The notes beneath the pieces were generated by a model. The model searched no databases. It was given only the letters and a program-made list of their open reading frames with translations, and was not told the DNA's origin. DNA of 64,000 bases from Candidatus Omnitrophota bacterium. GTDB lineage: Bacteria; Omnitrophota; Gorgyraeia; 2-01-FULL-45-10. Positions 3,812 to 55,344 of this stretch are shown here, piece by piece (position 1 is the stretch's first letter; every line of letters begins with the position of its first letter). The position numbers and the translations under genes are program-made. The stretch lies in the NCBI GenBank assembly GCA_041650935.1, contig JBAZKH010000002.1, positions 64,372 to 128,371 of the forward strand, in the 5' to 3' direction.

Positions 3812-3889
3812 GGCCTCATCGTCTAGCCTGGCCTAGGACATTAGGTTCTCAGCCTAAAGACTGGGGTTCAAATCCCCATGGGGCTACCA
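3812..3889 (+). tRNA. tRNA-Glu (anticodon CUC)
   Basis: Acceptor stem GGCCTCA/TGGGGCT with two G-U pairs. Anticodon stem TTAGG/CCTAA, loop TTCTCAG (anticodon CTC). T-arm TGGGGTTCAAATCCCCA. Discriminator A plus CCA. Confidence 0.75.
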
Positions 3890-3929
3890 TATATTCTGCC
3901 TCGAACCAGAGAGGCAGAGAAAATCAGCT

Positions 3930-3963
3930 GTAGGGCACCTTTAAAGGTGCCCTACGTATTTTT
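3930..3963 (+). terminator. Rho-independent terminator after the tRNA cluster: perfect palindrome GTAGGGCACCTTTAAAGGTGCCCTAC followed by GTATTTTT
   Basis: 11-bp perfect stem plus a T-run. A second hairpin, TCTGCCTC...GAGGCAGA, lies at 3895-3918. Confidence 0.6.
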
Positions 3964-4177
3964 CAATTTGTCGTCGAGGAAATCAGAGATACCGCACCAG
4001 CTTGATCGATCCTGCCAGCATTGGCTCTGACCATCGGATTCTACGGAAGCAGCTCAAATCCAGCCAAAACACGCGTTTATTAACGCTCTAACTCTCTTAG
4101 TTAATCGATGGACAGTTAATGGAATATTGACCGACTATTTGCGAGATTTGAGGTAGTGATTTAGCAGGTTAATTCCA

Positions 4178-4558
4178 TTAACTGCTTTTGAGGAGAAAGT
4201 CCCACATCTTGATCTGTTTTTCCCAGAGAGGTTCTTTGACGATATTGCGGATGCTGTATTCGCCGAGAGCGAATAATCGCTTGTTTTTGGATAGTAGAAT
4301 ATCTTTCTGAATCTTCGGACATAACAAAAGAATCTCCATTATCTGGCACATTCGCGCTGGCGTCATATTAAGCCACTCCGATATCTGCCTTGAAGTCATG
4401 CCTGAGTCTTTTTCAAGCATATCCTTTATCTGATAAGCGAGAATCAAGTATTGGCGCAGCTTCGGCTCTTGAGATAGCTTTAGCATGTTGTACTTATGCG
4501 ATTTATGCCGCACAGGTTTTAAGTCTATTTTGAATTCAAACTTCAAGTCAGTTCCCAT
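4178..4558 (-). pseudogene. C-terminal segment of a large serine recombinase, in a different frame from 4570-6144. Either a frameshift (pseudogene or sequencing error) or a programmed shift.
   Basis: The translation (KFEFKIDLKPVRHK...LSQEPKLRQYLILAYQI...ISEWLNMTPARMCQIMEILL) is collinear with the C-terminus of the intact paralogue 32347-33942 (HQFALKLAELKHIPYHRQ...SKEPLIRQNLILAHQI...IAGWIGISPARICHIATMLL). Stop coordinates differ mod 3. Confidence 0.6.
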
Positions 4559-4569
4559 AAAATCCTCGC

Positions 4570-6144
4570 TTATTTTAAGTCCTTTTGCAGTTCTGGATGC
4601 AATAGCAGGTATAGGAATTTAAGTCCGTTGTGGTTTAACGTGAGCGCGATTTTGCCGTCCATAGCGCTATAATCGATCCGTTTAACCATGAGTTTTAATG
4701 CTTTGTATTTTTCCTGAGGGAAAAGTGTCTCCCAGATAGGGGAGTTCATTATAAGCGCCTGCGAAAGTTCGTGATCCGTGATGAGTTTTTGTCCAAGCGT
4801 CATCTCTTTTACACGAGCTTCGGTTAATAAGCGGTCAAAGTCGCCATGTTTAGCAGTTAAATTTTTCAATTGGAGTTCCAGCTCTCTCTTATTACAATCC
4901 GGGTTCTTTAACGATTCTTTTACAGTCTCGATTTTTTCATTTAAGGTACGGGCATCTTTAATAAGAGTTTTCATCTCCTTATTATGAGTTTCAATCTCCT
5001 TTTGGATCTGCTCGTTTACATCGCGCAGCGCTTCTTTGCGCAGTTCCGACTCATTGGCTATTTTTATTAATGAGACCACTACTGCGTTTTCAATATCCTG
5101 CGCATTAACAGATCTTGTAGGGCATCCAGAATAACCGCGCTTATGAGCGTTTAAGCAGACATAGTAGCGGTATTTTCGGCCGTCTTTCTTACTGCTGTAA
5201 GTATGAAACATAAGGCTGTTACAGGCCTTGCAGTGCAGGGCGCTGCCAAGGAGGCCTGTATTAGGCGTATTCTTGGAATAGTCGCGCCTTACGCGGTTAC
5301 CCGCGATAATTTCCTGCGCTTTATTGAATGTTTCATCCGAGACTATGGCATCATGCGAGCCTTTGTAGAGTTCGCCGTTATATTTGACCTTGCCGATATA
5401 GAGCACATTATTTAATATGTGACTGATATTCGATGCCTTGAACCTTATGCCTCCGTGATCGCCTGATTTGGTCGGATGGCGTTTGGTAAGATAGCCTTTT
5501 TCATTCAGTATCTTCGCTACTGATAGCAGGGTTCTCTTTTTCAAGTATAGGTCGAATATCTCGCGTACCAGTTGTGCGTCTTTTTCGTTCACTACAATCC
5601 TATGATTTGCTTTATCGAGATCATAGCCTAATATCGGACGGCCTCCGAGCCATTTGCCTTTCTTACGAGCAGCTCCCATCTTGTCTTTAACACGCTCGCT
5701 GATAATCTCGCGTTCGAATTGGGCGAAGGAAAGAAGGATGTTGAGCGTAAGGCGCCCCATAGAATTATTGGTGTTAAAGGCTTGAGTTACGGATACGAAG
5801 ACGACGTTATTTTTCTCGAAGAGTTCGAGCAGTTGAACGAAATCGAGCAAGGATCGCGATAGCCTATCGACTTTATAGACCACAACGCAGTTAATCTTGC
5901 CTTCTTTAATATCGGCGATTAGCTTTCGCAAGGCAGGCCTTTCGGTATTAGCGCCCGTATAGCCTCCATCATCGTATCGATCCGGTAATAATATCCATCC
6001 TTCGCTCTTTTGGCTATTAATATAACTCTCAGAGGATTCGCGCTGGTTATCCAAAGACGTGAAGTCCCGGTCTAAGCCCTCGCTTGTGGACTTACGCGTA
6101 TAGATCGCGCAGTATAATCGTTTTGTGACAGTCTTTTCAGCCAT
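4570..6144 (-). CDS. Large serine recombinase: resolvase/invertase catalytic domain, recombinase domain and zinc-ribbon region. Truncated relative to its paralogue.
   Basis: N-terminus YCAIYTRKSTSEGLDRDFTSLDNQRE carries the catalytic Ser context. Also VVYKVDRLSRS. Cys-rich segment HCKACNSL...YYVC. 524 aa against 531 aa for the paralogue. Confidence 0.8.
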   Translation of the reverse strand: MAEKTVTKRLYCAIYTRKSTSEGLDRDFTSLDNQRESSESYINSQKSEGWILLPDRYDDGGYTGANTERPALRKLIADIKEGKINCVVVYKVDRLSRSLLDFVQLLELFEKNNVVFVSVTQAFNTNNSMGRLTLNILLSFAQFEREIISERVKDKMGAARKKGKWLGGRPILGYDLDKANHRIVVNEKDAQLVREIFDLYLKKRTLLSVAKILNEKGYLTKRHPTKSGDHGGIRFKASNISHILNNVLYIGKVKYNGELYKGSHDAIVSDETFNKAQEIIAGNRVRRDYSKNTPNTGLLGSALHCKACNSLMFHTYSSKKDGRKYRYYVCLNAHKRGYSGCPTRSVNAQDIENAVVVSLIKIANESELRKEALRDVNEQIQKEIETHNKEMKTLIKDARTLNEKIETVKESLKNPDCNKRELELQLKNLTAKHGDFDRLLTEARVKEMTLGQKLITDHELSQALIMNSPIWETLFPQEKYKALKLMVKRIDYSAMDGKIALTLNHNGLKFLYLLLHPELQKDLK

Positions 6145-6151
6145 AACTCAC

Positions 6152-6661
6152 CTAAAGGTTAAAAAACGCGTATCCATTCCAGTGCGCCCCTGTTATCGCG
6201 CTGGCTACAGCGCCGATAGTCTTATAAAATTTGCCATTATATTCAAAGCCTTTTTCAAGCGCTTTGACGCGAATTTCAGTGCTCTTATAGTTCTTGGTAA
6301 TGATGGTGCCCGGGATAGGGAGCCTTCTATCTCGCGTAATAAGCTGTTTATTGGCGATATCAGGCCGCAGCGTCTTATTATTGATAGGATCAAATTCATT
6401 AACCAGTTCCTTAACCTTGTTATATACCGGTTCCGGAAGGCCGCCGTATTCGATCTCCTGTATCCGATAAGCTATCCTCTGCCACAGATACGTCTTATTA
6501 TTCGAAGTCGCCTTTTTGCCGTCAAATAGCTCCGAATATCGCGCTTGAAGCTCCGGAACAGCCATCTCTTTTAAGGCCAATATTTGCTCTAAAATCGCCT
6601 CATTCATTGCCAAAACCTCCTCTCTAACCTCATTACATATAGGCCATACTAACTGCCGCAA
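6152..6661 (-). CDS. DUF2924-family protein (frequent partner of large serine recombinases)
   Basis: 169 aa. The C-terminus RLPIPGTIITKNYKSTEIRVKALEKGFEYNGKFYKTIGAVASAITGAHWNGYAFFNL is nearly identical in pattern to 33951-34394. Sits immediately upstream of the recombinase in both copies. Confidence 0.65.
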   Translation of the reverse strand: MRQLVWPICNEVREEVLAMNEAILEQILALKEMAVPELQARYSELFDGKKATSNNKTYLWQRIAYRIQEIEYGGLPEPVYNKVKELVNEFDPINNKTLRPDIANKQLITRDRRLPIPGTIITKNYKSTEIRVKALEKGFEYNGKFYKTIGAVASAITGAHWNGYAFFNL

Positions 6662-6817: not shown

Positions 6818-8446
6818 ATGAGTAGATATAATGGTTGGTCGAGAGAAAAACTAATAGCCGAGATTAAGCGCCTAAAGAAGGGTAAGAAATTCGGGTTAGT
6901 TTGGGAAGATAAAATCGAAGACGTGGCGGAACTTTGCAAAACAAAACTACCTGTCTTAGTAGAAGTTGAGGATAAAGAAATCTCCAGCGATTCCCATGGC
7001 TCGGCTAATATTCTAATCGAAGGTGATAATTACCACGCCCTATCGGTTCTTAATTACACACATAAAGAAAAAATTGATTTTATCTATATCGATCCGCCGT
7101 ACAATACTGGTAATAATGACTTTATCTATAATGACAAATTTGTTGATGCCGAAGACCCGTATAGGCATAGTAAATGGATAGCTTTTATGGAAAAACGTCT
7201 AAGGTTAGCAAGGCCTCTTTTGAAAAAAGACGCAGTAATTTTTATTAGCATTGATGACAATGAGCAATCACAGTTGAAATTATTATGTGATGAGGTATTT
7301 AATGAGAAAAATTTTGTTTCCACGATAATTTGGCAGAGAGCATATAGCCCAAAAAATCAGTCCAAAAGAATTTCCGTTGATCATGAATATATCTTGGCAT
7401 ATGCAAAAAATATTGAATTTTTGGATTTCAAGTTACTCCCAAGAACTGAAAAAATGAATGCGAGATATAAGAATCCAGATAAAGATCCTCGTGGCAATTG
7501 GAAATCCGGTGATTTGGTGGCAAACGAAGAACGAAGAAACGGCCATTATATTATTACTGGACCTCATGGTAATAAATTTGATGCTCCTCCCGGGAAGCAT
7601 TGGAGTTTCGGAAAAGAAACGATGATGGGATTTCTGAAAGATAATCGACTTTATTTTGGAAAAGACGGGAAAGCATTTCCTTCTCTGAAACAATTTTTAA
7701 ACGAAGTCCAGCAGGGCAGGAAGGCTTCAACACTGTTTTTCCATGATCAAGCTGGTCATAATGATGAGGCGAAAAAAGAGCTAAAAGATTTTTTTGAACA
7801 ATCAGATGATTTATTTTCTACCCCAAAACCAACACGCTTGATAAAGCAACTTATGAGATTGCTAAATAAAGATGATGCGATTATTTTAGATTTCATGGCT
7901 GGCTCAGGTACAACAGCGCAAGCCGTTTTAGACCTCAACAAAGAAGATCGCGGTAATCGCCAATTTATTCTTTGCACTAACAACGAAAATAATATTTGTT
8001 CGAATGTTTGTCATCCGAGAATTAAAAAAGTTATAGTCGGCTATAAAGATATTAAAGGTGAAAAAGTCGAAGGTTTTGGTGGAAATCTAAAGTATTTCCG
8101 AACAGACTTTGTCGACGCCGATCCGACAGACAAAAATAAAAAGAAATTGACCAAGATGGCCACGGGAATGCTTTGCCTCAAGGAAGGCACTTTTGAGAAG
8201 ATAATAAACAAAAAAGCCTTCAAGATTTATAAAAATACTAACCATTACACCGGCATTGTTTTTGATCAAATGGCGATATCTGATTTCAAGGAAGCCAGTG
8301 CCAAGATGAAGGGTAAATTTAACGTCTATGTGTTCTCGCTTGGTGATGATTCTTTTGAGGAAGAATTTGATGACATTAAGCAGAAGGTTAAATTGTCCCC
8401 TATCCCCGAAGTCATTTTGCGGGTTTACAGGAGAATTTTCAAATAA
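6818..8446 (+). CDS. mod: Type III restriction-modification methyltransferase (Mod), N6-adenine/N4-cytosine DNA methyltransferase
   Basis: 542 aa. DPPY motif in FIYIDPPYNTGNNDF. C-terminal FxGxG-like MAGSGTT. Stop overlaps the start of the downstream res gene (TAATG). Confidence 0.8.
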   Translation: MSRYNGWSREKLIAEIKRLKKGKKFGLVWEDKIEDVAELCKTKLPVLVEVEDKEISSDSHGSANILIEGDNYHALSVLNYTHKEKIDFIYIDPPYNTGNNDFIYNDKFVDAEDPYRHSKWIAFMEKRLRLARPLLKKDAVIFISIDDNEQSQLKLLCDEVFNEKNFVSTIIWQRAYSPKNQSKRISVDHEYILAYAKNIEFLDFKLLPRTEKMNARYKNPDKDPRGNWKSGDLVANEERRNGHYIITGPHGNKFDAPPGKHWSFGKETMMGFLKDNRLYFGKDGKAFPSLKQFLNEVQQGRKASTLFFHDQAGHNDEAKKELKDFFEQSDDLFSTPKPTRLIKQLMRLLNKDDAIILDFMAGSGTTAQAVLDLNKEDRGNRQFILCTNNENNICSNVCHPRIKKVIVGYKDIKGEKVEGFGGNLKYFRTDFVDADPTDKNKKKLTKMATGMLCLKEGTFEKIINKKAFKIYKNTNHYTGIVFDQMAISDFKEASAKMKGKFNVYVFSLGDDSFEEEFDDIKQKVKLSPIPEVILRVYRRIFK

Positions 8447-10662
8447 TGCAGCTTAAAAATTATCAAATCAACGCTATTGGCGAGTTATTAAGTAAGGCCA
8501 AAAAGCTGTTTACCTATGCCGATAATAAAAAGCTAATATTCAAGGCTCCTACCGGCTCTGGTAAGACCATAATGGTGGCCGAGTTTTTGAAGCAGCTATG
8601 TGAGGATAAGGAGATTAAATTTCCTCTTGCCTTTATCTGGACGGCCCCACGGCAATTGCACGAGCAAAGCAAGAATAAGCTGGATTACTATTACGAGCCG
8701 AGCCGGGCCCTGCGTTGTTCTTTCTTTGAGGACTTGGACGATAAAAAGATCGACCAAAATGAAATTTTGTTCTTTAACTGGGAGAGTATTAACAAAGAAG
8801 ATAATATCTACATTCGTGATAACGAGCAGGATAATAATCTGTTAAATGTTGTCGCTCAGACCAAAGAAGAAGGCCGGACGATAATTCTTATTATAGATGA
8901 AAGTCACCATCATGCCACAAGCGAAATATCACAAAACTTAATTCGAGATATTGGACCCAAGCTAACGATCGAGGTATCCGCCACCCCGGTCCTAGAAAGC
9001 CCGGATGAGATTGTTTCCATCCAGTTAGAGGACGTCAAGGTTGAAGGGATGATCAAGAAAGCCGTTATCCTTAACCCAGAGTTTAATAATGTACTAAAAG
9101 ATGAAAAAATTCAGAGTCAACTAAGTAAGCAATCCGAAGAGTTGGTTATTGAGCTTGCCCTAAAAAAAAGGAAAATCCTGAAAGAGGCCTACCAAAAGGA
9201 AAAGATCGATATCAACCCTCTGGTGCTTGTGCAATTGCCGGATCGGCATACCAGTCTCGAAGACGTCATAAAAGATAAAGTTATAGCGATTCTAAAGGAT
9301 AAGCACAAGATAACAACCAAAAACGGTAAACTGGCAATCCATCTTTCCGGTGACCACAAAAATTTAGAGAACATTTCAAGAGCGGACAGCGAGACGGAAG
9401 TTTTAATATTTAAGCAGGCACTCGCTCTGGGTTGGGATTGTCCTCGGGCGCAAATATTGGTTCTATTTCGTGATTGGAAAAGCATTGTTTTTTCAATCCA
9501 GACGATCGGCAGGATTATGCGTATGCCCGATCCCGATTATGGCCACTATGCAAATGAAATTCTCAATCACGGATATATATTCACCAATCTGGACGATATA
9601 GCAATTCAAGAGGACATTGCCAGAGACTACATCACGATTCATATATCAAGACGTCGAGGCGATTATTCGCCTTTGGGTATGCCTTCCTGCCATTCAAAAA
9701 GGCATCGTGAAAAAACAAGATTATCGCTATTCTTTATTAAAGTCTTTTCGCAAGAAGCCGACGCTTATGGTCTTGCTAAAAAGATACAGAAGAAATCAAA
9801 AGGTTTGAGTGTAAATTTTATCTCAGATTTCAAGGCGGAGAGCGTTGACGCTTTGGTGGGACAGACGATTTCTGGTGATAAGGGCATCAAAATGACCGGA
9901 TTTGATCTGCAAAAGTATTTCGATTATTTCATCAGAAAAAATCTTGCTCCGTTTCATCCGGAGGATCGATCCATTGGCAGGCTAAAAGAAGCGATCTACT
10001 ATTTTTTTGACTACACGATGGGTATTAAGTATGAGGATGATCAGGAAGCTATTGTCGAAATGGTGCTCAGCGAGCACAATATACAGCATTTTATCAATGT
10101 TATAGATCAGACCAAGGAAAAGTATAGAGACCATGTATCGAAGAGGGAAAAAGAGCTTGATTATGATGAAAAATGGGATGTGCCGGAAAGCATCAGTTTT
10201 AGCTCTCAATGCGTCCTCGAGCATCAGAAGAAATCAATTATGCAGCCGTTTTATAACAATGGGCGGTCGGCTCTTGAAACGGCATTTATTAAATATCTGG
10301 AAAGCCCCAATAAGGTGGCTTGGTGGTTCAAAAATGGTGATCGGGATGCCGTATATTTTGCCGTTCCCTATGAAGAAGGTAGCGATAAGAAGCCTTTTTA
10401 CGTTGATTTTATTATTCGTATGAAAGATGGCTCTATCGGTCTTTTTGATACCAAATCAGGTCTTACAAGGCAAGTAGCAGGCCCAAAAGTAGACGGACTT
10501 AATGCCTATATTCACGAGCAGAATAAAAAAGGCAAAAATCTATTCGGTGGAATCGTTACCAATACCGATGCTCGCAATTATACCGGCCGATGGATTTATT
10601 TTAATAAGGACGCAAAAGTTTTTACGAATAGCTTTGATAACTGGGAAAATTTGGTTTTATAG
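8446..10662 (+). CDS. res: Type III restriction enzyme Res subunit (SF2 helicase plus endonuclease)
   Basis: 738 aa. Walker A APTGSGKT. DExH-like IIDESHHHA. Translationally coupled to mod. Confidence 0.75.
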   Translation: MQLKNYQINAIGELLSKAKKLFTYADNKKLIFKAPTGSGKTIMVAEFLKQLCEDKEIKFPLAFIWTAPRQLHEQSKNKLDYYYEPSRALRCSFFEDLDDKKIDQNEILFFNWESINKEDNIYIRDNEQDNNLLNVVAQTKEEGRTIILIIDESHHHATSEISQNLIRDIGPKLTIEVSATPVLESPDEIVSIQLEDVKVEGMIKKAVILNPEFNNVLKDEKIQSQLSKQSEELVIELALKKRKILKEAYQKEKIDINPLVLVQLPDRHTSLEDVIKDKVIAILKDKHKITTKNGKLAIHLSGDHKNLENISRADSETEVLIFKQALALGWDCPRAQILVLFRDWKSIVFSIQTIGRIMRMPDPDYGHYANEILNHGYIFTNLDDIAIQEDIARDYITIHISRRRGDYSPLGMPSCHSKRHREKTRLSLFFIKVFSQEADAYGLAKKIQKKSKGLSVNFISDFKAESVDALVGQTISGDKGIKMTGFDLQKYFDYFIRKNLAPFHPEDRSIGRLKEAIYYFFDYTMGIKYEDDQEAIVEMVLSEHNIQHFINVIDQTKEKYRDHVSKREKELDYDEKWDVPESISFSSQCVLEHQKKSIMQPFYNNGRSALETAFIKYLESPNKVAWWFKNGDRDAVYFAVPYEEGSDKKPFYVDFIIRMKDGSIGLFDTKSGLTRQVAGPKVDGLNAYIHEQNKKGKNLFGGIVTNTDARNYTGRWIYFNKDAKVFTNSFDNWENLVL

Positions 10663-10688
10663 AATAATATGATTAGATAAGGAAAATT

Positions 10689-10835
10689 ATGGATAAGAAA
10701 TCGCATACATCGCTAGAAGTGTTTTTTAATTCTCTTGAGGAGAAGGATAAAGAGCTATTGGTAGATTATATGAAAGATCGTAAATATGAAAGTCTTTCTA
10801 GTAAATTCGACACGCTTTTAAAGACGAAAAAATGA
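10689..10835 (+). CDS. Possible 48-aa ORF translationally coupled (ATGA overlap) to the downstream ATPase
   Basis: Start ATG 10689 with an upstream AAGGA-like RBS. The TGA stop overlaps the ATG of 10832. Below the ORF-track length cutoff. Confidence 0.25.
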   Translation: MDKKSHTSLEVFFNSLEEKDKELLVDYMKDRKYESLSSKFDTLLKTKK

Positions 10836-13219: not shown

Positions 13220-13279
13220 TTTATTTGGATGAATCGGAATCGAGAACGGTCCAGAAGGTGCCATTTCATAAATTAAACT

Positions 13280-14011: not shown

Positions 14012-14264
14012 CGATATATAAATTAGGAACAACAACGACCATTTTTTAATATTCCCGAATCAAAAACCGGTCGCGATTACACGGCCGGAGTTAGCAATCG
14101 AAAATAAATAAATCTCAATCCCTGAACAGATTATGCCTATTCGGGGATTTTCATTTCCATCAGAGTAAAGATTTTTGTTGACAGGAATAGCCGACTGTAA
14201 TATAATCTTACAAGACTTGTAATATAATCGAACATATGATACACTTTATATTGGAGGTGAGAGC

Positions 14265-44691: not shown

Positions 44692-44730
44692 AACTTATTT
44701 CTGATATATAAGCAGGGGCAAACGCAGGAT

Positions 44731-45576: not shown

Positions 45577-46140
45577 ATGGGCAAAATAATTGATCCAAAG
45601 AAAATTAGAATAGGCGATGTTATACTTGTAGCGAGCGGCACAGCCGCTACTATTTGGGTACAACAAAAGTTGGGGTATGGAGATAGAAGCAAATGGACTC
45701 ATGTAGCGGGATGTATGGGGGGCTATGATTTAATTGAAGGGCAAGTTCCAAGATCAAGAGTCTGTGACCTGCAAAAGAACTATGTTGATAAAAAGATTGA
45801 AATAAAAGTAATGAGAAAGACTTATGATAACAATTATCCTAGAATAAAAATAGCTCTTTGGTGGGCTTCTATGAATAATACACTTTATGATTTTCCTCAA
45901 CTTTTGTGGTATCCTATAAAAGCAATTGGCCATATTTGGCCAGCATTAGGAAATTGCCTGTTGCATGTAAATAATATATTTAACAACAAAAAATTGCTTA
46001 TTTGTTCAGAATTATTAGCCAGTGGTTTTTATAAAGAAAATTATTATATATTTGGTAAGACAGCCGAAAATGTGCTGCCAGCAGATTTTGATGACTCCAC
46101 TATATTTAACGAAGTAACCGATATCTGGCTAGAAGTATAA
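45577..46140 (+). CDS. YiiX/YaeF-like permuted papain-fold amidase (Peptidase C92 family), soluble form
   Basis: 187 aa. IGDVILVASG...SKWTHVAGCMG and downstream CSELLASGFY. Same family signature as 13280-14011. Confidence 0.45.
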   Translation: MGKIIDPKKIRIGDVILVASGTAATIWVQQKLGYGDRSKWTHVAGCMGGYDLIEGQVPRSRVCDLQKNYVDKKIEIKVMRKTYDNNYPRIKIALWWASMNNTLYDFPQLLWYPIKAIGHIWPALGNCLLHVNNIFNNKKLLICSELLASGFYKENYYIFGKTAENVLPADFDDSTIFNEVTDIWLEV

Positions 46141-46370
46141 AAAGTAAAATATATTTAACTTAAATAATATCAATAATTTATAACTTGCATTTTCTTATAT
46201 TTGTGGTATATTTATAGCGAGAGTGTTAATAAAAAATACTCTTCTTTGTAGCAGATAGTACCGCTACCTAATTCATGTGGCGCCTAACAGCGGCATGAGT
46301 CCAAATTAACGGATTCGTGCCGCTTTTTTTGTTGCCAGCGGCACCTAATGGCTAAAATTGGAGGTGCCAC

Positions 46371-47648: not shown

Positions 47649-48312
47649 CGATCAGGCCAATAAAGAGCAGCCTATCCTTGTGCTGATCCAAGACATAAAG
47701 GAAGGCCGCGTAGCGCCTGAAGTTGTCGATAAGGACTTGCGCCAGCAGTGTGTCGAAGTGTTTTTGGGTGAGGGGTACACCGTTGCCTCAATAGCTCAGA
47801 TATTTAAGAAGTGCGATAAGACAATCCGGCGCGATATCGAGGATATAAGAGCACGCAACGCCATTACGCCGGATATAGACCTGGCCAAAAAGACCATAGG
47901 TGAGATGGTCGTATATATGCATACCCACCGGGCGTACCTAATGCGCCTTGCGCGCTCAAAAGATGCCTCGCTGGCCGAAAAGGCCCAGGCCGAATACTTG
48001 GCGGCTCGTATAGGCCTAGAACTGATCGCCAAGCTGCAAACCCTGGGGTTCCTGCCTTTAAAACCTCAGGAGATCGTTGCTGATATCTCGCATCATGTAG
48101 CTGCCGATAATGAGAGTTCGTTCGGAGAATTGAGATCTGAGATAGTAGAGATAGAGAGAATTTCGAAGGAATCCGGAGAGTTGACGCCGGAAATGGTAAA
48201 AGAGCTTGAGAATTTAAAAAAGAGAATTGAAAAAGCGGAAATACAGGATAGCGTAATCAAAATATCATCCCATGCGGATGAGGAAGGGAAAAAAGATGAA
48301 AAAGATAATTGA
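47635..48312 (+). CDS. HTH-containing TerS-like protein (paralogue of 29360-30034)
   Basis: 225 aa. VASIAQIFKKCDKTIRRDIEDIRARNA helix-turn-helix. Confidence 0.4.
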   Translation: MSVNNDQANKEQPILVLIQDIKEGRVAPEVVDKDLRQQCVEVFLGEGYTVASIAQIFKKCDKTIRRDIEDIRARNAITPDIDLAKKTIGEMVVYMHTHRAYLMRLARSKDASLAEKAQAEYLAARIGLELIAKLQTLGFLPLKPQEIVADISHHVAADNESSFGELRSEIVEIERISKESGELTPEMVKELENLKKRIEKAEIQDSVIKISSHADEEGKKDEKDN

Positions 48313-49873
48313 AACTATCAGTAGCGAGATCGGGAGGATCAGAAGGAGGGCGGGAATGGATTTCATCAGTTTCCGTAACTTTTATTTCCAACATTATAAT
48401 AAAAGTCCGGATGGCGAATTCCAGAAAGAATTATCGCAAATCCTCGCCAATATGACTACAAGAAGAGGCGCGCGATATGCAATAGCGGCGCCGCGTGGAT
48501 TCGCAAAAAGCACGATCGTAGGATTACAGTATGTGATCTATTGTATTTGCTATAAGCTTGAGGACTTCATTGTGATAGCCTCCAGCACAAGCAGTCAAGC
48601 GACGGATTTTTTGCGGCATATTAAAGAGGAGTTCGAGAACAACGAAAGATTAAAATTGGACTTTCCGGAAGTTTGCGAAGTCGGCAGTAAGCTAAGCCCA
48701 CCGCGGTGGACACAGAGCGAGATCATCACCAGTAATGACGTGAAGGTCATCGCTCTAGGCACGGGACAACAGTTAAGGGGTCGCAGACACAAAGAATCGC
48801 GGCCTACGTTAATAGTTCTTGATGATATCGAAACCGATGAGTCGGTGGAGAATCCAGATAGTCGTTATAAGCTGGAAGATTGGATAAATAAGACCGTCCT
48901 AAAGGCAGGTGATGCTAGAACCAATGTTATAATTATTGGTACGTTGCATCATCCCGCATCTCTACTGGCAAAATACACTGACCCCAAACAATCGCCCGGT
49001 TGGACCAGTAAAATATACAAGGCGATAATATCGCATGCCGAACATGTCGAGCTATGGGAAAAATGGAAGCGGATACTCTCAGGTAAAGAAACCTACAATG
49101 GGGAATTTGGTAGGGATGCGGCATTTGCGTTTTATAAAAAGCACGAAAGTACTATGCTTGAAGGAGTGAAGCTTTTATGGCCGGACTTCAAGAGCTATCA
49201 CGATCTTATGTTGATGCGGGAACAGGAGGGTTATTCCAGCTTCGATTCCGAAATGCAAAACGAACCCATTAACTCAAGGGACTGCGCCTTTAATATGGAA
49301 GAGGTGAGCTATCGAGAGGATGAATTTGAATCCGAGGAGCATTTAATGCGTGCAATGCGGCACGAAATACTATGTTTTGGGTCATGCGATCCGAGCCTCG
49401 GCAAAGAAGGGAAACAGAGCGACGACTCAGCCATAGTTGTTGTTGCTTGGAATGCTGAAAGAGGGAAGATCTATGTATTGGAGGCCGATATTGCCAGGCG
49501 CAGCCCCGATAAGACGATAGAAGATATACTGGCCCATCACATGAAGCATGAGATTGTGGGGTTTGCCTTTGAGACAAACCAATTTCAGGAGATTATGGCA
49601 AAGGATCTTATAAAGCGCGCCAGGGAAAGATGTATACCGGTACGGCTTAAGGAGGTGAGAAATACCGGGGATAAGCTTGCCAGGATACAGTCGCTTCAGG
49701 CCCTTATCAAGAGCGGTGCTATAGTATTTTCCAGGAAGCATCAGACCTTGCTTGAGCAGCTACGGTATTTCCCTAAGGGCCCGCATGACGATGGGCTGGA
49801 TGCATTGGAGATGGTAGTGCGGTTATGCTATAAGCCACCAAGAGACTACAGATTGTTATCTATACCGTGGTAA
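48272..49873 (+). CDS. Phage terminase large subunit (paralogue of 30031-31728). The true start may be the internal Met at 48296.
   Basis: Walker A AIAAPRGFAKST, Walker B LIVLDDIETDE. C-terminal nuclease GSCDPS. RBS GAGGAAGGG lies upstream of ATG 48296. Confidence 0.7.
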   Translation: MRMRKGKKMKKIIETISSEIGRIRRRAGMDFISFRNFYFQHYNKSPDGEFQKELSQILANMTTRRGARYAIAAPRGFAKSTIVGLQYVIYCICYKLEDFIVIASSTSSQATDFLRHIKEEFENNERLKLDFPEVCEVGSKLSPPRWTQSEIITSNDVKVIALGTGQQLRGRRHKESRPTLIVLDDIETDESVENPDSRYKLEDWINKTVLKAGDARTNVIIIGTLHHPASLLAKYTDPKQSPGWTSKIYKAIISHAEHVELWEKWKRILSGKETYNGEFGRDAAFAFYKKHESTMLEGVKLLWPDFKSYHDLMLMREQEGYSSFDSEMQNEPINSRDCAFNMEEVSYREDEFESEEHLMRAMRHEILCFGSCDPSLGKEGKQSDDSAIVVVAWNAERGKIYVLEADIARRSPDKTIEDILAHHMKHEIVGFAFETNQFQEIMAKDLIKRARERCIPVRLKEVRNTGDKLARIQSLQALIKSGAIVFSRKHQTLLEQLRYFPKGPHDDGLDALEMVVRLCYKPPRDYRLLSIPW

Positions 49874-49942: not shown

Positions 49943-50185
49943 CTATATATTGCGCTCGGCTTCTTTTATTAGCTTGCTTAATGGCTGGTTTAAAGCAGAG
50001 GCGACCTTATAGGCGGTACCGATTCCTACATCTACTTTGCCAAGCTCTATTGAACTGACGTAGGTGCGGTGTATTTCGGCCTTATCCGCAAAATCCTCCT
50101 GGGAAAGACCCATATTATGGCGTCTTCTTCTGACTGCCATCCCAAATTCTTCCCTAAAGCTATTAACCTTGCCTTTGTCTTTCAT
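49943..50185 (-). CDS. XRE/Cro-family HTH transcriptional regulator
   Basis: 80 aa. MGLSQEDFADKAEIHRTYVSSIELGK helix-turn-helix. Confidence 0.6.
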   Translation of the reverse strand: MKDKGKVNSFREEFGMAVRRRRHNMGLSQEDFADKAEIHRTYVSSIELGKVDVGIGTAYKVASALNQPLSKLIKEAERNI

Positions 50186-50204
50186 CAGAGCTATAATCCC
50201 ATCT

Positions 50205-50238
50205 TGTAGACAATAAATCTACAGACGATAGTCTACAA
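50205..50238. promoter_or_regulatory. Operator-like sites in the divergent intergenic region: perfect palindrome TGTAGAC-AATAAAT-CTACA plus a third half-site AGTCTACAA
   Basis: Lies directly upstream of the XRE gene start and of the divergent gene 50292. Confidence 0.45.
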
Positions 50239-50291
50239 AATGAATATGCCATTTTGGGGATAATATTGGCTATAAAAGGAGGGTTAGGGCT

Positions 50292-51032
50292 ATGAAAAAG
50301 ATAAGGCATTTTATCAAAGCGCATTATAAGGTAACTTTGGCACTATTTATTTTGTCGTTTCTGTGCAGCAGTGTGCTTGCTAAGGAAGTAATGTATGAAA
50401 ACCCACAAATATTCGATTATCCGTTCGATAAGGTGTGGACAACCGTTGTGCTAGCGCTTCAAAAATCAGGTATGATGATAAAAGAGATGAATAGGGATAG
50501 CGGATTCATCTCTACAGATTGGGGCATGATGGGTGGCGGCATCGGAGGAGCATTTAGCAGGGCAATGGTGGGTAGGGCGTATTTATACAAATTTACCTAT
50601 TCAATCGTTCCTATTAATGATCGTCAAACTTCCGTGAAAATAAAGTGCGCTGTTGGGCTACAGAATCAGTTCGGGCAGATAGACTCGGGAGATTGGATGG
50701 CAGGTGGCGATCTGGCAAAGAATGAGCTGGAACAGATCAAGGGGCTTGATTTATGGCTGATTGGGGAGCCATCCGTGGCTATGGGAATAGATTATAAGTA
50801 TAATAAGGACCTTGATAGGCTTAGAATCATGAAGGTATTCCCAAATACATCTGCCAAAAAGGCAGGCATGAGATATTATGATCTTCTTATGAAAATAGAC
50901 AGCAGAGACATAACCAATGAGCGCGACTACATGACAGCCATGAAAAATCTTAAGCCAGGCGACATATACACTGTAACTATATCGCGTTTTGATGAAGCTA
51001 AAGAGTTCAAGCTGACAGCAGAAGCTAAATAA
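50292..51032 (+). CDS. Secreted protein with a C-terminal PDZ domain
   Basis: 246 aa. N-terminal signal or TM segment. C-terminal MRYYDLLMKIDSRDITNERDYMTAMKNLKPGDIYTVTISR is PDZ-like. Confidence 0.45.
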   Translation: MKKIRHFIKAHYKVTLALFILSFLCSSVLAKEVMYENPQIFDYPFDKVWTTVVLALQKSGMMIKEMNRDSGFISTDWGMMGGGIGGAFSRAMVGRAYLYKFTYSIVPINDRQTSVKIKCAVGLQNQFGQIDSGDWMAGGDLAKNELEQIKGLDLWLIGEPSVAMGIDYKYNKDLDRLRIMKVFPNTSAKKAGMRYYDLLMKIDSRDITNERDYMTAMKNLKPGDIYTVTISRFDEAKEFKLTAEAK

Positions 51033-51176
51033 CAGCAATTATCCTACTAGCCTTTCAGCGATCCTACCCGTTGCATAAAATCCGTTGAAGGCTGACTATC
51101 GAGGAGTATAATACATATATATAGGGACAGAATAAAGAAGGATGCCTCAATTGTACGCTATTAAAAAGGGATAACA

Positions 51177-53093
51177 ATGCCTCAAGACAGAATAAGTGGA
51201 GCCGATGCAGATAGGTATGGCAGTGAGACTGCGAGGCTGATAGCAAAAGCGATTGGAGCTATATCTATCAGCGAAACCAGTAATGAATTTGAATTAGATA
51301 ACAGTAAAATAACAATCAGATGCGCTAGAAAAAATACGCAAAATTTGGGTGCCCCGTATAAACTATTAGAAAGAGTAAGTGCTGTAATAGCTGCTTTAGA
51401 GCAAGAAAATGGCGATTATAAATTATACGAAATAACCCCGGCTAAATTTAAGGAAAAGATGAGGCCCACAGGAAGCACAGGGCCATCTGCCGGAAGAGTT
51501 GGGCTAGTGAGTAAATCCTTATTTATTAATGAAGGGAAATTCATCCGTGAAGTAAAATTGAATACAGAAGAAAAAAATAAAATATGGAGGATGGCTTTTC
51601 GTTGTGGAAACCAGGGTCAATCATTGTGGGAGGAATGCAAAAAATATAATGTTGCAGCAATCACTTATAGCCCTTTGGAAAAATTCGATTTAACAAATCA
51701 CAAGTATAATGAACCAGTCGAGCTATGGAGCAAGCTTTCCTCCTCTTCACAAAAATCAAGCCTAAGACACGTTGCCTACGATATGAAAAATGGTGATACG
51801 ATATATGTTAAAGAGGGACCGAAAATTATTTGCAAAGGGACTGTCTTAGGTAAGCCAGATCGGGCATATGTATTTGATCAGAGTTTTCGAATAGTTGATC
51901 ATAATGGTACCCCATGGCCTCACCAAGTGCCTGTAGCGTGGGAAGCTTCTTTTGAACCCGTTGGTGTGCTGCTTGGAGCAGAACAAAATGCCGTTCTGGA
52001 GCTGAATGGTGAACGATTAAGTAAATTACAAAAGGCCCTTTCAAACAATGGGGCAGTTGGTGTTGAAAACAAAATTGCCAGGATCTGTTGGAATGATCAT
52101 GGATGGCAAAGACCTTCCGGACGCGATGGTAAAAGTAAGAATAAAGATGCGTATGAGTTTAAAGTAGGATATGGACATGAGGAGTGGTTGCTTGATACAG
52201 AAAAATTAGTTGATGGCTATCATTATGGATACTTACAGCCAATTGGAAAGGCTTGGGATAAATATCAAGGCCAAACTTTTAATATTTCTCTCTATTCGAT
52301 AAACGACGATTCGCGCCAGCGATGGTGGATTGGAACCATCAGAAATGCCGAGGTTGTATCGCCAGAGGAATCGAAAGAAGTTTTAGAATATTATAAGAAA
52401 AAAGGCTGGCTGCAAGAAATGATAGACCAAATAAAAAATATAAATGGTGACGAGAGAGATTTTGGTAAAAATGCTCCATTCGCATTTACGAATATTAAAT
52501 TTAAGCCAGCCGATTGGGAATTGCTCGATCCCCCGCAGCGTATTTCAAATAAGGACAAATCAGTATCATCTACTTACTATGTGCTACTGAATAAAGTAAA
52601 AAATCCAGATTTGGAGCTACCATTTGGCGATGATCCAACTTTTACCCCAGGGCATACCATAAGAGATGAAAAAGGCATTGCATATTATGGACAGAGAAAA
52701 AGCGAGATTGACCGTTTCCATTATAAGATGCAGAATAACTCATATAAGCAGTTAGTAGATATGTATGGGCATGATAATGTTAGCACCGAACGCCAGATAG
52801 GCATTGGAGCAGCCGTTGATATTTCAGTTAAAGATGGAGATGGTGAAATCTTCTATGAATTTAAAACCAGTAATTCCATAAAAGCATGTATACGGGAAGC
52901 CCTATCGCAACTTCTCGAGTATTCATATTATCCTGATACGGAAAGAGCGAAGAAATTAATTATCGTATCGCAAAATCCAATAACTAAAGATGCCAAAAAT
53001 TATTTAATTAAGATTAGAGAGCATTTTAAAATACCTGTTTATTACAAGCAATATAATGTAGATAAGAATTGCTTGGAAGAAGATGAATATTAA
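51177..53093 (+). CDS. Large hypothetical protein with a C-terminal PD-(D/E)xK nuclease-like motif and a possible PUA/EVE-like N-terminal region. Candidate modification-dependent restriction enzyme.
   Basis: 638 aa. C-terminal AAVDISVKDGDGEIFYEFKTSN (D...E-x-K). N-terminal GDTIYVKEGPKIICKGTVLG beta-barrel-like segment. No ATPase motifs. Confidence 0.3.
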   Translation: MPQDRISGADADRYGSETARLIAKAIGAISISETSNEFELDNSKITIRCARKNTQNLGAPYKLLERVSAVIAALEQENGDYKLYEITPAKFKEKMRPTGSTGPSAGRVGLVSKSLFINEGKFIREVKLNTEEKNKIWRMAFRCGNQGQSLWEECKKYNVAAITYSPLEKFDLTNHKYNEPVELWSKLSSSSQKSSLRHVAYDMKNGDTIYVKEGPKIICKGTVLGKPDRAYVFDQSFRIVDHNGTPWPHQVPVAWEASFEPVGVLLGAEQNAVLELNGERLSKLQKALSNNGAVGVENKIARICWNDHGWQRPSGRDGKSKNKDAYEFKVGYGHEEWLLDTEKLVDGYHYGYLQPIGKAWDKYQGQTFNISLYSINDDSRQRWWIGTIRNAEVVSPEESKEVLEYYKKKGWLQEMIDQIKNINGDERDFGKNAPFAFTNIKFKPADWELLDPPQRISNKDKSVSSTYYVLLNKVKNPDLELPFGDDPTFTPGHTIRDEKGIAYYGQRKSEIDRFHYKMQNNSYKQLVDMYGHDNVSTERQIGIGAAVDISVKDGDGEIFYEFKTSNSIKACIREALSQLLEYSYYPDTERAKKLIIVSQNPITKDAKNYLIKIREHFKIPVYYKQYNVDKNCLEEDEY

Positions 53094-53117
53094 CCTTAAC
53101 AAGGAAATGAGGTTATT

Positions 53118-53864
53118 GTGCTAGAACGAGAATTTGAAGATATTCTGTCAACATATCCAGAATTAATAGAGGAAGGGTTGTCTTTAAAAGGCCGTCAGGT
53201 GAACACTGATAGAAAATTCATAGATTTACTTTTTAAGGATAAAACTGGCCAGGACTTGATAGTAGAGCTGAAAATAGGAGTAGCAAAAAGAGAACATGTT
53301 GCTCAGTTGTTAGATTATGCTGGATATAAAATAGCTGAAGGTAAAGTGCCTGTTAGGATTATGCTTATTGCGAATCGAATCCCTGAAAATTTTAAACATT
53401 CTTTCGATTATTTCGGGTTTGAATATAAAGAAATAACCATTGATAAATTGCACGATTTCGTACGCATCAAAAATGATCAAAACCTATTAAAGATCTTTGC
53501 AGCCCCTGTAGAAAATGAAAAAAGCTTTGTGACCGAGCCCACACGCACAGATCTTTCGGTTAGCAGGCCGAGCCTAGCCATAAAAACACCTATAAATGGG
53601 ACCAATCGCAATGAAACCAGACAAGCGATGGCATCTCGTATTAAATCCGGACAATTGTTTAATCAAGCCAAATGCGCCATAGAGCTACTTAATACATCTC
53701 AGGACCCCGTAGATATGAAAAGAATAATCTCTTTTATGTCTACGAAAGGCTACCATTCAAAAACTTACTATGATTTATTTAATTCATTGGTCGATTCCGA
53801 CCTTGTTGAGCAGGTAACTCTTGGCGGTAGAAAGGCATATCGGCTAAGAAGAGATGAGTTATAG
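53118..53864 (+). CDS. NucS/DUF91-like RecB-family nuclease domain protein with a C-terminal winged-helix-like region
   Basis: 248 aa. EEGLSLKGRQVNTDRKFIDLLFKDKTGQDLIVELK...QLLDY matches the NucS C-terminal nuclease pattern (E..G...D-x-L...ELK...Q..Y). Confidence 0.5.
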   Translation: MLEREFEDILSTYPELIEEGLSLKGRQVNTDRKFIDLLFKDKTGQDLIVELKIGVAKREHVAQLLDYAGYKIAEGKVPVRIMLIANRIPENFKHSFDYFGFEYKEITIDKLHDFVRIKNDQNLLKIFAAPVENEKSFVTEPTRTDLSVSRPSLAIKTPINGTNRNETRQAMASRIKSGQLFNQAKCAIELLNTSQDPVDMKRIISFMSTKGYHSKTYYDLFNSLVDSDLVEQVTLGGRKAYRLRRDEL

Positions 53865-54108
53865 CAAAAATAGATTTACGCCTTAGCTTCGAGAAGCCCC
53901 ATATAGATAGGGGCTGCAATTCTCAATTGCTAAAGCGGGAATGGAGATATTGAATATGGAAATAAATATTCGTATTCGAATCTCTGTTAAGGCCCTAAGA
54001 GTTATTTTATCATTGCTCTTATGGGCAGTGATAGGATAGCCCTGAGGTCCGGGCCACGGAGGGGTTTAATAACCCCTCCGTGGTTTTTTAAATTTAGGAA
54101 AATGATAT

Positions 54109-54882
54109 ATGAAAGATAGCTTAAAGTTTCACCCGCTAGTAGAGAAGACTAAAAAAGGCATCGATAAATCTCATATATACAGAGGATGTATTAAGAATAA
54201 ACATGGCGATATTAATATTCGAATCGGACCAAATAGCCTTGATCGAGCATTAAAAATCATGGATTCGGTAATTAAGAAACTTGAAAAGAAAAGCGCGAAA
54301 GTATTTCTAAATGAGCAACAGTATAAGAGCGCTACTTGCGTAACCATTTTTGAAGAAACGCTTTCAATAGATCTATATGAAAAAATAAATATTACCAAAA
54401 AGAAAGAGATGCGAGATCGTTTTGATTACGATCCTTATAACTATACTCCTAATGGGAATCTTGTGCTTCGCATCAAAGACGGTCCTTATGAGATTCGTAG
54501 CGAGTGGGAAGACGGCAAGAGGAAACAATTAGAGGATCACATAGATGATTTTATCGATGGATTGTTTCTTGCAGCAAAGAAGGGGAGGGCTGATAGGTTA
54601 GAAAGAGAGCGCGAACATCGGAAATGGGAAGCGGAAGAGAGTAGGAAAGAAAAAGAAGAGCAGGCAAGGCAGCGCGAACAGGCAGAGCTCGATTCGCTAG
54701 AAAATGAAGCAATGCGATGGCAAAGAAGCAAAATAATCCGAGCTTATATAGAAGCCACTACGGATGCATATATAAAAAAGAACGGCAAAATTGATCCGGG
54801 AAGCGAATTTGACCAATGGAAAACATGGGCTAACGAGCGCGTGAATCGTCTCGATCCTCTTTACGGCAAATTTCCTGCATAA
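54109..54882 (+). CDS. Hypothetical protein with a charged coiled-coil segment
   Basis: 257 aa. RADRLEREREHRKWEAEESRKEKEEQARQREQAELDSLENE. No enzymatic motif recognised. Confidence 0.3.
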   Translation: MKDSLKFHPLVEKTKKGIDKSHIYRGCIKNKHGDINIRIGPNSLDRALKIMDSVIKKLEKKSAKVFLNEQQYKSATCVTIFEETLSIDLYEKINITKKKEMRDRFDYDPYNYTPNGNLVLRIKDGPYEIRSEWEDGKRKQLEDHIDDFIDGLFLAAKKGRADRLEREREHRKWEAEESRKEKEEQARQREQAELDSLENEAMRWQRSKIIRAYIEATTDAYIKKNGKIDPGSEFDQWKTWANERVNRLDPLYGKFPA

Positions 54883-54898
54883 CAAAAAAGAAAGTTAC

Positions 54899-55108
54899 GT
54901 GTTGAAAGATGGGGAAAGGATGGGCTCAATGAAAACACCCGAGTATAGCAGTGAATCAGGCCATAATCTAGAAGACTGCGAGAATGAAATAGCCGAAATA
55001 CTAGCCGACGCAATGTATGAGCACATTAAAAAAAGCCCGCAAAAACCAGATCAAAAGGTAAAAGATAAAGAACATGAAAGCCAGATAAAGCAATGTCCGG
55101 GTCGGTAG
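54899..55108 (+). CDS. Hypothetical small acidic protein
   Basis: 69 aa ORF. No motif. Confidence 0.2.
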   Translation: MLKDGERMGSMKTPEYSSESGHNLEDCENEIAEILADAMYEHIKKSPQKPDQKVKDKEHESQIKQCPGR

Positions 55109-55331
55109 GGATGGACATTACTATCCCATAGTATTTCAGTAAGTTACGTAATTTCAGGCCAAAAATGACCGGACAAAACGGACACGTTTTCGCTCATTTT
55201 GTCCGTTTCGGACACCAAAAATCACCGAGGAATACTATCTCTCTATTCGAAATTTTCTTGATATGATAAGGTATTATGGCTATAATGCACCTGTGTAAAT
55301 AAGAGATACCTTGCCGTAGTGATACGGGCAA

Positions 55332-55344
55332 GGGCTACCATATA
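55332..55344 (+). repeat. 13-bp exact copy (GGGCTACCATATA) of the 3' end of tRNA-Glu plus 4 flanking nt (identical to 3881-3893). Candidate right-hand att remnant.
   Basis: Read directly from the sequence. Preceded by the hairpin CCTTGCCG...CGGGCAAGG and followed by a terminator. Confidence 0.4.

Follow-up and report, generated by a model that had tools for sequence, protein, structure and literature searches.

What does it mean when the 3' end of a tRNA gene turns up a second time, 51.4 kb downstream, at the far edge of a run of defence and mobile genes? The question is raised by a 64,000-nucleotide stretch of contig JBAZKH010000002.1 from a Candidatus Omnitrophota bacterium (the whole stretch is referred to below as the window), in which the 13-mer GGGCTACCATATA appears both at the end of tRNA-Glu(CTC) and just before a block of housekeeping genes. 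The original prediction, made from the sequence alone, regarded the two copies as a possible outer attachment (att) boundary of the entire accessory stretch. Having compared the locus with its relatives, we consider it very probable that the 13-mers are attL and attR, the outer ends of two related integrative elements, A and B, arranged in tandem at the 3' end of tRNA-Glu(CTC). The features of the site are as follows.

50–3889: left flank, with gltX (3' part), glnS, tRNA-Gln, a nucleotidyltransferase gene, tRNA-Leu and tRNA-Glu
2576–2649: tRNA-Gln (ARAGORN)
3502–3586: tRNA-Leu(GAG) (ARAGORN)
3812–3889, plus strand: tRNA-Glu(CTC), intact; predicted integration target and left half of attB (ARAGORN)
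3881–3893, plus strand: left copy of the 13-mer (attL); core CTACCA at 3884–3889, GGG belonging to the tRNA and TATA being the first 4 nt of the A left arm
31993–32005, plus strand: degenerate middle copy CCCCTACCAAAAA at the A/B junction; core CTACCA at 31996–32001
55332–55344, plus strand: right copy of the 13-mer (attR); GGG belonging to the B right arm, core CTACCA at 55335–55340, TATA read as native host sequence
55341–55410, plus strand: sequence read as native to the downstream side of tRNA-Glu (B'), with a bidirectional terminator (55346–55381) and then a conserved GGTAGCTATAG..GATTTGA motif
from 55588: right flank, with hss, nikR, an epimerase gene, hypA, gcvT/H/PA/PB and lplA

The 13-mer occurs exactly twice in the window, at the two predicted positions and on the plus strand in both cases, and no third copy was found in the window even when one mismatch was allowed. 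Its left copy is, as had been claimed, the last 9 nt of tRNA-Glu including the CCA, plus 4 nt, according to the ARAGORN placement. At least two matches to it were seen in 0 of 100 shuffles. The chance of about 1e-3 originally given for such a match is adequate for one fixed 13-mer, but is optimistic once the freedom of choice is counted: with 3 tRNAs and 7 offsets around each 3' end allowed, some such 13-mer recurred in about 1% of random windows generated by a first-order Markov model (22 of 2000). By itself the recurrence is unlikely but not overwhelming, and its weight derives from where the copies sit. The right copy does lie where accessory genes stop and housekeeping genes resume, the last accessory open reading frame (ORF) ending at 54882 and hss beginning at 55588. 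Composition changes at both copies: GC content is about 0.40 between the repeats and 0.50–0.55 outside them (about 0.52 in both flanks), while GC content at third codon positions (GC3) is 0.25–0.54 in every gene between the repeats compared to 0.57–0.66 in the flanking core genes. The hairpin (55309–55333) and the bidirectional terminator (A-run, stem and T-run, 55346–55381) that were said to flank the right copy are both visible; a simple terminator scan missed the latter because its loop is 11 nt long. Around 55000–55700, no Rfam family was found, and ARAGORN called no tRNA on the minus strand.

JGI metagenomes were scanned with the invariant 49 nt of the tRNA-Glu 3' half, yielding 34 stretches (loci of relatives are designated here by L and a number); these 49 nt are identical across all 34 and in L085–L088. 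In L095, L116, L101 and L122, the CCA of tRNA-Glu is directly followed by a homologue of window positions 55341–55410. The sequence after the CCA is TATAGTAAAAATCACCGTGGAAATAACGCGGTGATTTTTT in L095, or a close variant of it, and L116, L101 and L122 continue with TTGTGGTAGCTGTCGAAGGATTTGA; over the first 40 nt, L095 has 3 mismatches to the window from 55341 onwards. L120 and L121 share the distal motif of 55341–55410 behind a different terminator. In L121 and L094, hss is found 0.35 and 1.9 kb after tRNA-Glu with no island between them, on the opposite strand there. Leftwards of GGGCTACCA, the attR of the window bears no relation to the tRNA. Since the empty-site relatives carry the homologue of 55341 right after the CCA, everything between the two 13-mer copies is an insertion, and its boundaries are thereby established: as read from these alignments, the sequence from 55341 onwards is the native downstream region of tRNA-Glu with its own terminator, and 3890–55340 is inserted DNA. 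Relatives in which tRNA-Glu is directly followed by the distal flank were just what the original prediction had looked to for support; their existence favours an att boundary, and the two copies hold up as the outer boundary of the whole stretch.

The tRNA-Glu of the window itself differs from that of all relatives at two positions, 3816, where T in place of C at tRNA position 5 gives a U-G pair in the acceptor stem, and 3840, where A replaces G (GACATTAGG compared to GACGTTAGG in the relatives). A metagenome pattern scan using the window-specific base of GACATTAGG returned no matches. On the minus strand, positions 55386–55409 (GCTTCAAATCCCCTATAGCTACCA) resemble the T-arm/acceptor/CCA end of a tRNA facing tRNA-Glu across the bidirectional terminator; the region is kept in L116, L101, L120 and L121, and no tRNA was called there. 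At the neighbouring tRNA-Leu(GAG), the last 21 nt (3566–3586) are exactly repeated 140 bp downstream, at 3706–3726 (21 of 25 nt when the count is extended to the left). The two copies enclose a mini-insert, some 120 bp long, that separates tRNA-Leu from tRNA-Glu, a scar of the same type.

The inserted DNA consists of two tandem related elements, A (3890–31995) and B (32002–55334). They are laid out alike, with a large serine recombinase (LSR) and a DUF2924 gene on the left, variable cargo, genes for a ParB-methylase and a large terminase subunit (TerL), and a conserved right arm. Protein identities between A and B are 55% for the LSRs, 57% for DUF2924, 68.5% for the ParB-methylases, 36% for orf224/orf225 and 38% for TerL. 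Domains and defence systems were annotated with Pfam, PHROG and PADLOC, and the scans covered about 56 of the 88 ORFs that are 100 amino acids (aa) or longer. The parts of element A are:

3890–4177, plus strand: left arm (P'A), with a hairpin and an intrinsic terminator at 3929–3956 that would now terminate the tRNA; conserved with L085–L088
4178–6661, minus strand: integration module, with orf126 (4178–4558), LSR_A (4570–6144) and DUF2924 (6152–6661) (Pfam; PHROG for orf126)
6818–15375, plus strand: defence cargo, with a Type III restriction-modification (R-M) system (Mod, Res), an LmuB-like SMC ATPase, a C92 peptidase-like protein, and an HTH-SocA (Panacea) antitoxin with orf114 (Pfam, PADLOC)
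16090–27370, plus strand: cargo, with LOG, phoB, phoR, a second response regulator, a porin, pstSCAB, orf137, a low-molecular-weight (LMW) phosphatase and phoU (Pfam)
27553–31728, plus strand: right-hand module, with orf178, a ParB_N-DNA methylase, orf224 and TerL (Pfam, PHROG)
31729–31995, plus strand: right arm (PA), with a GGACA/TGTCC array, an outward promoter-like site and the hairpin GGGGATAACCCC (alignments including L125–L128)

Those of element B are:

32002–32346, plus strand: left arm (P'B), with a hairpin, a terminator at 32038–32068 and TAGTAAATGG repeats (aligned with L103, L112 and L089)
32347–34394, minus strand: integration module, with LSR_B (32347–33942) and DUF2924 (33951–34394) (Pfam)
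34574–45558, plus strand: cargo, with a Type I R-M system (hsdM, hsdS, hsdR), a CBASS cyclase and its four-transmembrane (4TM) effector, a YgjP-like peptidase, a DUF1883-TIR protein and a NucA-type nuclease (Pfam, PADLOC)
45577–49873, plus strand: right-hand module, with orf187, a ParB_N-DNA methylase, orf225 and TerL (Pfam, PHROG)
49943–55108: distal cargo, with a helix-turn-helix (HTH) regulator on the minus strand, a PDZ lipoprotein, a 638-aa protein, a NucS-like nuclease, and 257-aa and 59-aa ORFs (Pfam, gene calls in L082)
55090–55334, plus strand: right arm (PB), with GGACA/TGTCC motifs, an outward promoter (TTGATA-17-TATAAT, 55258–55286) and a hairpin at 55309–55333

In both right arms, the GGACA/TGTCC array, the outward promoter-like site and the hairpin follow one another in the same order and lead into CTACCA; the A hairpin GGGGATAACCCC looks like a shortened T-arm. 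The serial insertion into one hotspot that had been suggested is borne out by this tandem structure, together with the third, weaker copy of the core at 31993–32005. GC3 is 0.25–0.48 in the defence cargo of A and 0.32–0.45 in the distal cargo of B.

The four-gene module of orf178, ParB-methylase, orf224 and TerL is paralogous to that at 45577–49873 and recurs in many Omnitrophota contigs. Both TerL proteins match PHROG 38 (E 6e-90 and 4e-104), and ParB-methylases are typical of phage packaging regions; no matches to capsid, portal or tail genes were found among the scanned ORFs with Pfam or PHROG. The presence of TerL and ParB-methylase with no capsid, portal or tail match excludes a prophage. 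The module would serve packaging or transfer; it and the GGACA arrays may take part in packaging by a helper phage, since capsid, portal and tail genes are missing.

Several observations concern individual parts of the elements. The right-arm arrays (31800–31995 and 55100–55340, and also in L125–L128) may be a recombinase or terminase binding site, or encode a small RNA. In the integrated state, transcription from 55258–55286 would produce a transcript of about 90 nt that stops at the tRNA terminator, and in a circle it would read across attP. The sequence TAGTAAATGG occurs three times at 32229–32335, once inverted, just past the stop codon of LSR_B, is kept in L112 and L089, and may be a protein-binding site in the B left arm. 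The CBASS pair (cyclase 37962–39032, 4TM effector 39043–39864) lies between hsdS and hsdR of the Type I R-M operon, which has an extra half-size hsdS-like ORF at 34574–35185.

Elements of both types were found at the same tRNA in other genomes. LSR_A homologues of 79–92% identity lie directly after tRNA-Glu in L085/L086/L110, L087/L088 and L098. In L085 (a JGI contig) and L087 (GCA_030695905.1), where the identity is 79–80%, the order is gltX, glnS (seen in L085, not in L087), tRNA-Gln, tRNA-Leu, tRNA-Glu and then, on the opposite strand, the orf126 homologue, the LSR and DUF2924. About 290 bp from the CCA to the small ORF are homologous among the A-type relatives, with compensatory changes in the terminator stem, while the cargo differs (BREX in L085, for example); insertion at this tRNA has thus happened repeatedly and with varying cargo. 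In L103 and L112, tRNA-Glu is directly adjoined by a B-type left arm, that of L103 beginning with the same bases as the window from 32002. An LSR_B homologue (75%) adjoins the CCA end of tRNA-His(GTG) in L089/L090, and a more distant one is found at tRNA-His in L129; L129 and L131 between them cover a whole B-like element, which carries DISARM-like cargo and a module of ParB-methylase, HTH and TerL genes, and the right junction of which was not located with confidence. An independent tandem array is found in L104, from a different genome. Wherever the contig of an occupied relative extends as far as the integrase gene, it is an LSR of this family that adjoins the tRNA end, and the arm sequence after the CCA tracks the LSR type, A or B, at tRNA-Glu and tRNA-His alike.

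Other relatives show further kinds of insert. In L091 and L107, some 300 bp separate tRNA-Glu from a third, distant LSR, which shows 25–27% identity to LSR_A and LSR_B and lies behind a different arm (ATCTGTTGCAAAGAGAG..). In L125 (8170–8230), an element whose TerL is 86% identical to that of A ends in ..GGGGAGAGGTTATTCGCCCCACCA|CTTAACG, its right arm imitating a different tRNA 3' end, and the Logan contig L127 stops 4 nt past that CCA. Inserts of 70–400 bp follow tRNA-Glu in L116, L108, L118, L123, L099, L102 and L114; several have another copy, the second or third, of (G)GGCTACCA at their boundary, and many start with the hairpin AATTTTGCC..GGCAAAATT. These short inserts may be remnants, or miniature non-autonomous elements using the tRNA-Glu site. 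In L116, three copies of the tRNA-Glu 3' end are found within about 700 bp (reverse strand), along with small inserts and a duplicated terminator, and these multiple tRNA ends and the duplicated terminator indicate a long history of insertion at the locus.

The point of exchange was sought in a table of 20 junctions aligned on CTACCA. A-type left arms start right after the CCA with 4–6 variable bases followed by a conserved CTGCCTC..GAGGCAG hairpin, and B-type left arms start there with AAAATCTCTCTC or a close variant. From CTACCA rightwards, the A/B junction of the window equals L103; leftwards, the A right arm stands here against the tRNA in L103. Similarly, at the internal junction of L104, ..CGGACTACCA|CTAACACTGCC (more fully ..GGTTCAAACCTTCTTCGGACTACCA|CTAACACTGCCTG..), the first 18 bases to the right of the CCA match the tRNA junction of L085, while the sequence to the left of CTACCA differs. 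Because identical left-arm starts follow different left contexts in L104 and L085, and in the window and L103, the breakpoints are placed within CTACCA, and the exchange point, as located by these alignments, is within this hexamer or at its edge. A crossover 3–4 nt to the right of the CCA was also considered; it is less parsimonious in view of the identical left-arm starts behind different left contexts.

The 13-bp identity is thus composite, with a 6-bp core joined to GGG and TATA from different partners. In the GGG, the B right arm copies the tRNA; the TATA of the A left arm is fortuitously the same as that of the native flank, which L095 also has. The reconstructed attP_A shares CTACCATATA with attB, and attP_B shares GGGCTACCA, 9–10 bp in each case. 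The true shared core of such an island can therefore be as short as 6 bp at the CCA end, with the longer apparent repeat assembled from three partners.

The following course of events is proposed. The insertion site of both elements would be the very 3' end of tRNA-Glu(CTC), and each would bring its own LSR and DUF2924 near the left arm, on the strand opposite to the tRNA. The attP of each would consist of a right arm (hairpin + NNNCTACCA, resembling a tRNA 3' end), the core, and the left arm that follows the CCA and provides a new terminator. The attP would recombine with the tRNA end inside CTACCA, which comprises the last acceptor bases, the discriminator base and the CCA, and since the exchange falls inside this shared sequence, the tRNA would stay intact. 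The native downstream TATAG and terminator would thereby have been displaced by 51.4 kb, to 55341. The second integration would have used a regenerated core, on either the tRNA side or the far side, to give cores at 3884, 31996 and 55335, and the defence systems and the Pho regulon would be cargo. The two LSRs, with their reconstructed attP and attB, are directly testable candidates for site-specific integration tools.

The Pho regulon was a source of doubt in the original prediction. The doubt was justified insofar as L116 has Pho genes directly after tRNA-Glu; here, on the other hand, they lie inside A and are foreign in composition, and we regard them as probably cargo of element A. Their GC3 is 0.39–0.54 compared to 0.57–0.66 in host genes, while a pstB encoding a 92% identical protein in L012, from a genome of host-like composition, has a GC3 of 0.62. 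Positions 19432–27354 of the window (7.9 kb) are 90.8% identical at the nucleotide level to L147/L148, contigs of a sister ENA sample and of a JGI sample; there, the gene downstream of phoU is the Gabija gene gajA, and the homology to the window ends 16 nt before the phoU stop codon. In L116 and L101, tRNA-Glu is followed by phoB-phoR-pstSCAB-LMW phosphatase-phoU in the same gene order as here, the L116 proteins being 41–79% identical. In the window, the LOG gene (16090–17133) stands before phoB; in L003 (82%) it comes after hss and in L012 (81%) after phoU, as if a block of LOG and Pho genes had been circularly permuted.

One other reading, unlikely but the best of the alternatives, is that A is itself an accretion of two A-type elements that once flanked the Pho genes of a host resembling L116, close to tRNA-Glu, and later lost their inner ends. 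Capture from a former host in this manner is attractive: Pho genes do stand beside tRNA-Glu in L116, tandem arrays and decayed elements exist at the site (L104), accretion has been proposed for the Dehalococcoides ssrA islands (PMC3146451), and the position of LOG, after phoU in L012 and before phoB here, looks as if the block had passed through a circle. However, neither an inner att core nor a remnant of a tRNA end is present at 15376–16090 or 27370–27553, and such an accretion would concern the history of A, leaving the meaning of the 13-mers unchanged.

A distinctly less probable scenario is that the Pho genes are native at this position and that two independent insertions, 3890 to about 16000 and about 27500 to 55340, lie on either side of them, in which case the 13-mers would bound no single insert. 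The identical gene order after tRNA-Glu in L116 and L101 speaks for it, as does the presence of LOG and pst/phoU near hss in L003 and L012. Yet the homologue of the sequence that follows the tRNA in L116 is found here at 55341, beside hss and not beside Pho. The original prediction had named synteny of Pho with the tRNA cluster in relatives as a finding that would tell against it; such synteny is seen in L116, but the native flank in the window adjoins hss. The GC3 of the Pho genes is moreover that of an island and not the 0.62 of the L012 pstB, the block lies between two backbone halves that element B shows to belong together, and the 90.8% identical block of L147 has an accessory neighbour, GajA, after phoU. 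No att-like tRNA fragment flanks the block, and no further degenerate copies of the tRNA-Glu 3' end were found anywhere inside the island. Taken together, these results favour the Pho regulon as cargo of an integrated element A.

Serine integrases recombine short attP and attB sites by a crossover with a 2-bp stagger. The recombinases found in the window are the two LSRs at 4570–6144 and 32347–33942, of 524 aa (LSR_A) and 531 aa (LSR_B), both with Resolvase, Recombinase and Zn_ribbon_recom Pfam domains and with matches in the PDB that include the TP901-1, SPbeta, A118 and phiC31 integrases. In LSR_A, the one examined for it, residues 12–20 (CAIYTRKST) align with VAIYTRVST of the TP901-1 integrase (motif AIYTRxST), the serine of which we take, by analogy with TP901-1, to be the nucleophile. 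The neighbours of the LSRs are the DUF2924 proteins and, in A, a 126-aa ORF with no resolvase domain; no second small serine recombinase is among them. In a scan for homologues of LSR and DUF2924, 7999 of the 8000 candidates scored reached E<=1e-30. No tyrosine-recombinase domain was found in the scanned ORFs across the 51 kb, in agreement with the claim that the recombinases present are serine-type only. As an LSR stands beside the tRNA end in the occupied relatives that reach the integrase gene, and the arm type follows the LSR type, there is a strong inference from these comparisons that the LSRs catalyse the insertion.

The original prediction had been led in another direction by the notion that serine recombinases leave no such repeats, a notion contradicted by SCCmec and the Dehalococcoides ssrA islands, LSR elements flanked by repeats of 15–20 bp (PMC3146451). 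It also suggested an older tyrosine-integrase event; on this reading the repeat would be a scar, the serine elements having arrived later by other means. In its favour, tyrosine integrases are the usual users of tRNA genes, and the Islander paper (PMC4383910) states that serine-family integrases are not known to target them. We consider this reading very improbable: besides the missing tyrosine-recombinase domain, an LSR adjoins the tRNA end in all occupied relatives that reach the integrase gene, the arm after the CCA switches with the LSR type, and at both outer junctions the A and B arm sequences extend right up to the core. Least credible of all is a chance recurrence with the true right end of the island elsewhere. 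In its favour, some 20 exact pairs of 13-mers would be expected across 52 kb (our own arithmetic), the window holds many short repeat families, and the core common to all three junctions covers only 6 of the 13 bases. Against it, the chance is near 1% even with the choice of tRNA and offset counted, the homology to the empty sites begins exactly at the base after CTACCA (55341), and the composition shifts at the 55332–55344 copy as well.

Against the tandem array of two LSR elements proposed here stand several points. All the empty sites come from other species, and neither an empty site from the same species nor an excised circle or attP junction was seen; a scan of IMG/VR for circles and attP with LSR_A and with 17–18-mers of both left arms gave unrelated or chance matches only, and a look-up of a 100% identical TerL had no result. 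When species-representative genomes were scanned with hss, all 80 loci recovered came from Omnitrophota-type genomes, and in none of them did tRNA-Glu precede hss; gene order around hss is poorly kept in the closest genomes (84–87% identity), and no empty site was obtained in this way. The 'native' terminator may itself once have come in with an element. The shared core is only 6 bp long and uninformative as a motif, CTACCA occurring 20 times in the window against 17 expected by chance; with its frequency at chance level, the middle copy rests on arm homology and not on the motif. No dyad symmetry around the core was obvious by eye, and known LSRs require both half-sites of attB.

For mechanism and layout, the closest precedents are the Dehalococcoides ssrA islands and the staphylococcal cassette chromosome (SCC) elements; for ecology, the closest are the tycheposons. 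As described by McMurdie et al. (2011; PMC3146451), the ssrA islands employ a CcrB-like LSR, are bordered by a 20-bp repeat that copies the 3' end of the tmRNA gene, and occur as tandem stacks. They resemble the present elements in having the LSR (about 540 aa there) on the reverse strand beside attL, in inserting at the 3' end of an intact structured-RNA gene with a direct repeat at the far boundary, in forming tandem islands each with its own repeat, in combining a conserved integration module with variable cargo, and in the presence of a ParB-domain gene and a DNA-modification gene. They differ in their tmRNA target, T-loop crossover and 20-bp repeat, compared to tRNA-Glu or tRNA-His, a 6-bp core and 9–13 bp of identity here, and in carrying a second small serine recombinase, DsiA, where DUF2924 is found here; a terminase is not listed there among the integration-module genes, and the host phylum is a different one. 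SCC elements, with which PMC3146451 compares the ssrA islands, are likewise mobilised by LSRs. They insert at a conserved gene, at its 3' end, have short direct repeats on both sides and build up tandem or composite arrays via a regenerated target. In their case (CcrAB/CcrC), however, the target is rlmH (orfX), two recombinases are usual, there is no terminase/ParB-methylase module, and the hosts are staphylococci.

The tycheposons of Prochlorococcus (Hackl et al., bioRxiv 10.1101/2020.12.28.424599) share with the present elements the insertion at tRNA genes, the partial tRNA repeats, the arrays, and nutrient cargo that includes phosphate assimilation; some are satellite-like with a packaging gene. 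An LSR was found in 27 of 937 of them and a tyrosine recombinase in 910. Many carry primase/helicase replication modules, whereas no primase, replicative helicase or polymerase domains were detected in the window ORFs scanned, and their packaging genes are terS or that of the major capsid protein, compared to TerL and ParB-methylase here. Tycheposons resembling phage-inducible chromosomal islands (PICI) have never been seen with cargo, while both elements here combine TerL with large cargo, the likeness being one of features. A complete Pho regulon as island cargo in the uncultured phylum Omnitrophota would parallel these marine cyanobacterial elements.

With the tDNA islands of Islander (PMC4383910), the window shares an intact tRNA at one end, a displaced fragment of its 3' part in the same orientation at the other and an integrase inside, as well as tandem arrays whose members each carry a fragment and an integrase of their own. 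That class has tyrosine integrases, anticodon- or T-stem crossovers and longer fragments, in contrast to the serine integrase and 9-nt fragment seen here. Contrary to the Islander statement on serine-family integrases, the present locus offers a comparatively verified case of serine-recombinase elements targeting a tRNA gene; such islands would escape island finders that depend on a tyrosine integrase.

The elements described here are set apart from all of these by their target at the CCA end of a tRNA, their 6-bp core, DUF2924, the combination of TerL and ParB-methylase with large cargo, and their phylum. Tentatively, and with slightly more doubt than belief, we suggest that they represent an undescribed family of capsid-less, terminase-bearing integrative elements widespread in Omnitrophota. 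The LSRs of this family would target the discriminator-CCA end of tRNAs (Glu, His and probably others) via an attP with a tRNA-like right arm (hairpin + NCCA) and a terminator-supplying left arm, would switch target tRNA between close relatives, and would stack in tandem and move entire nutrient regulons (Pho) along with defence systems.

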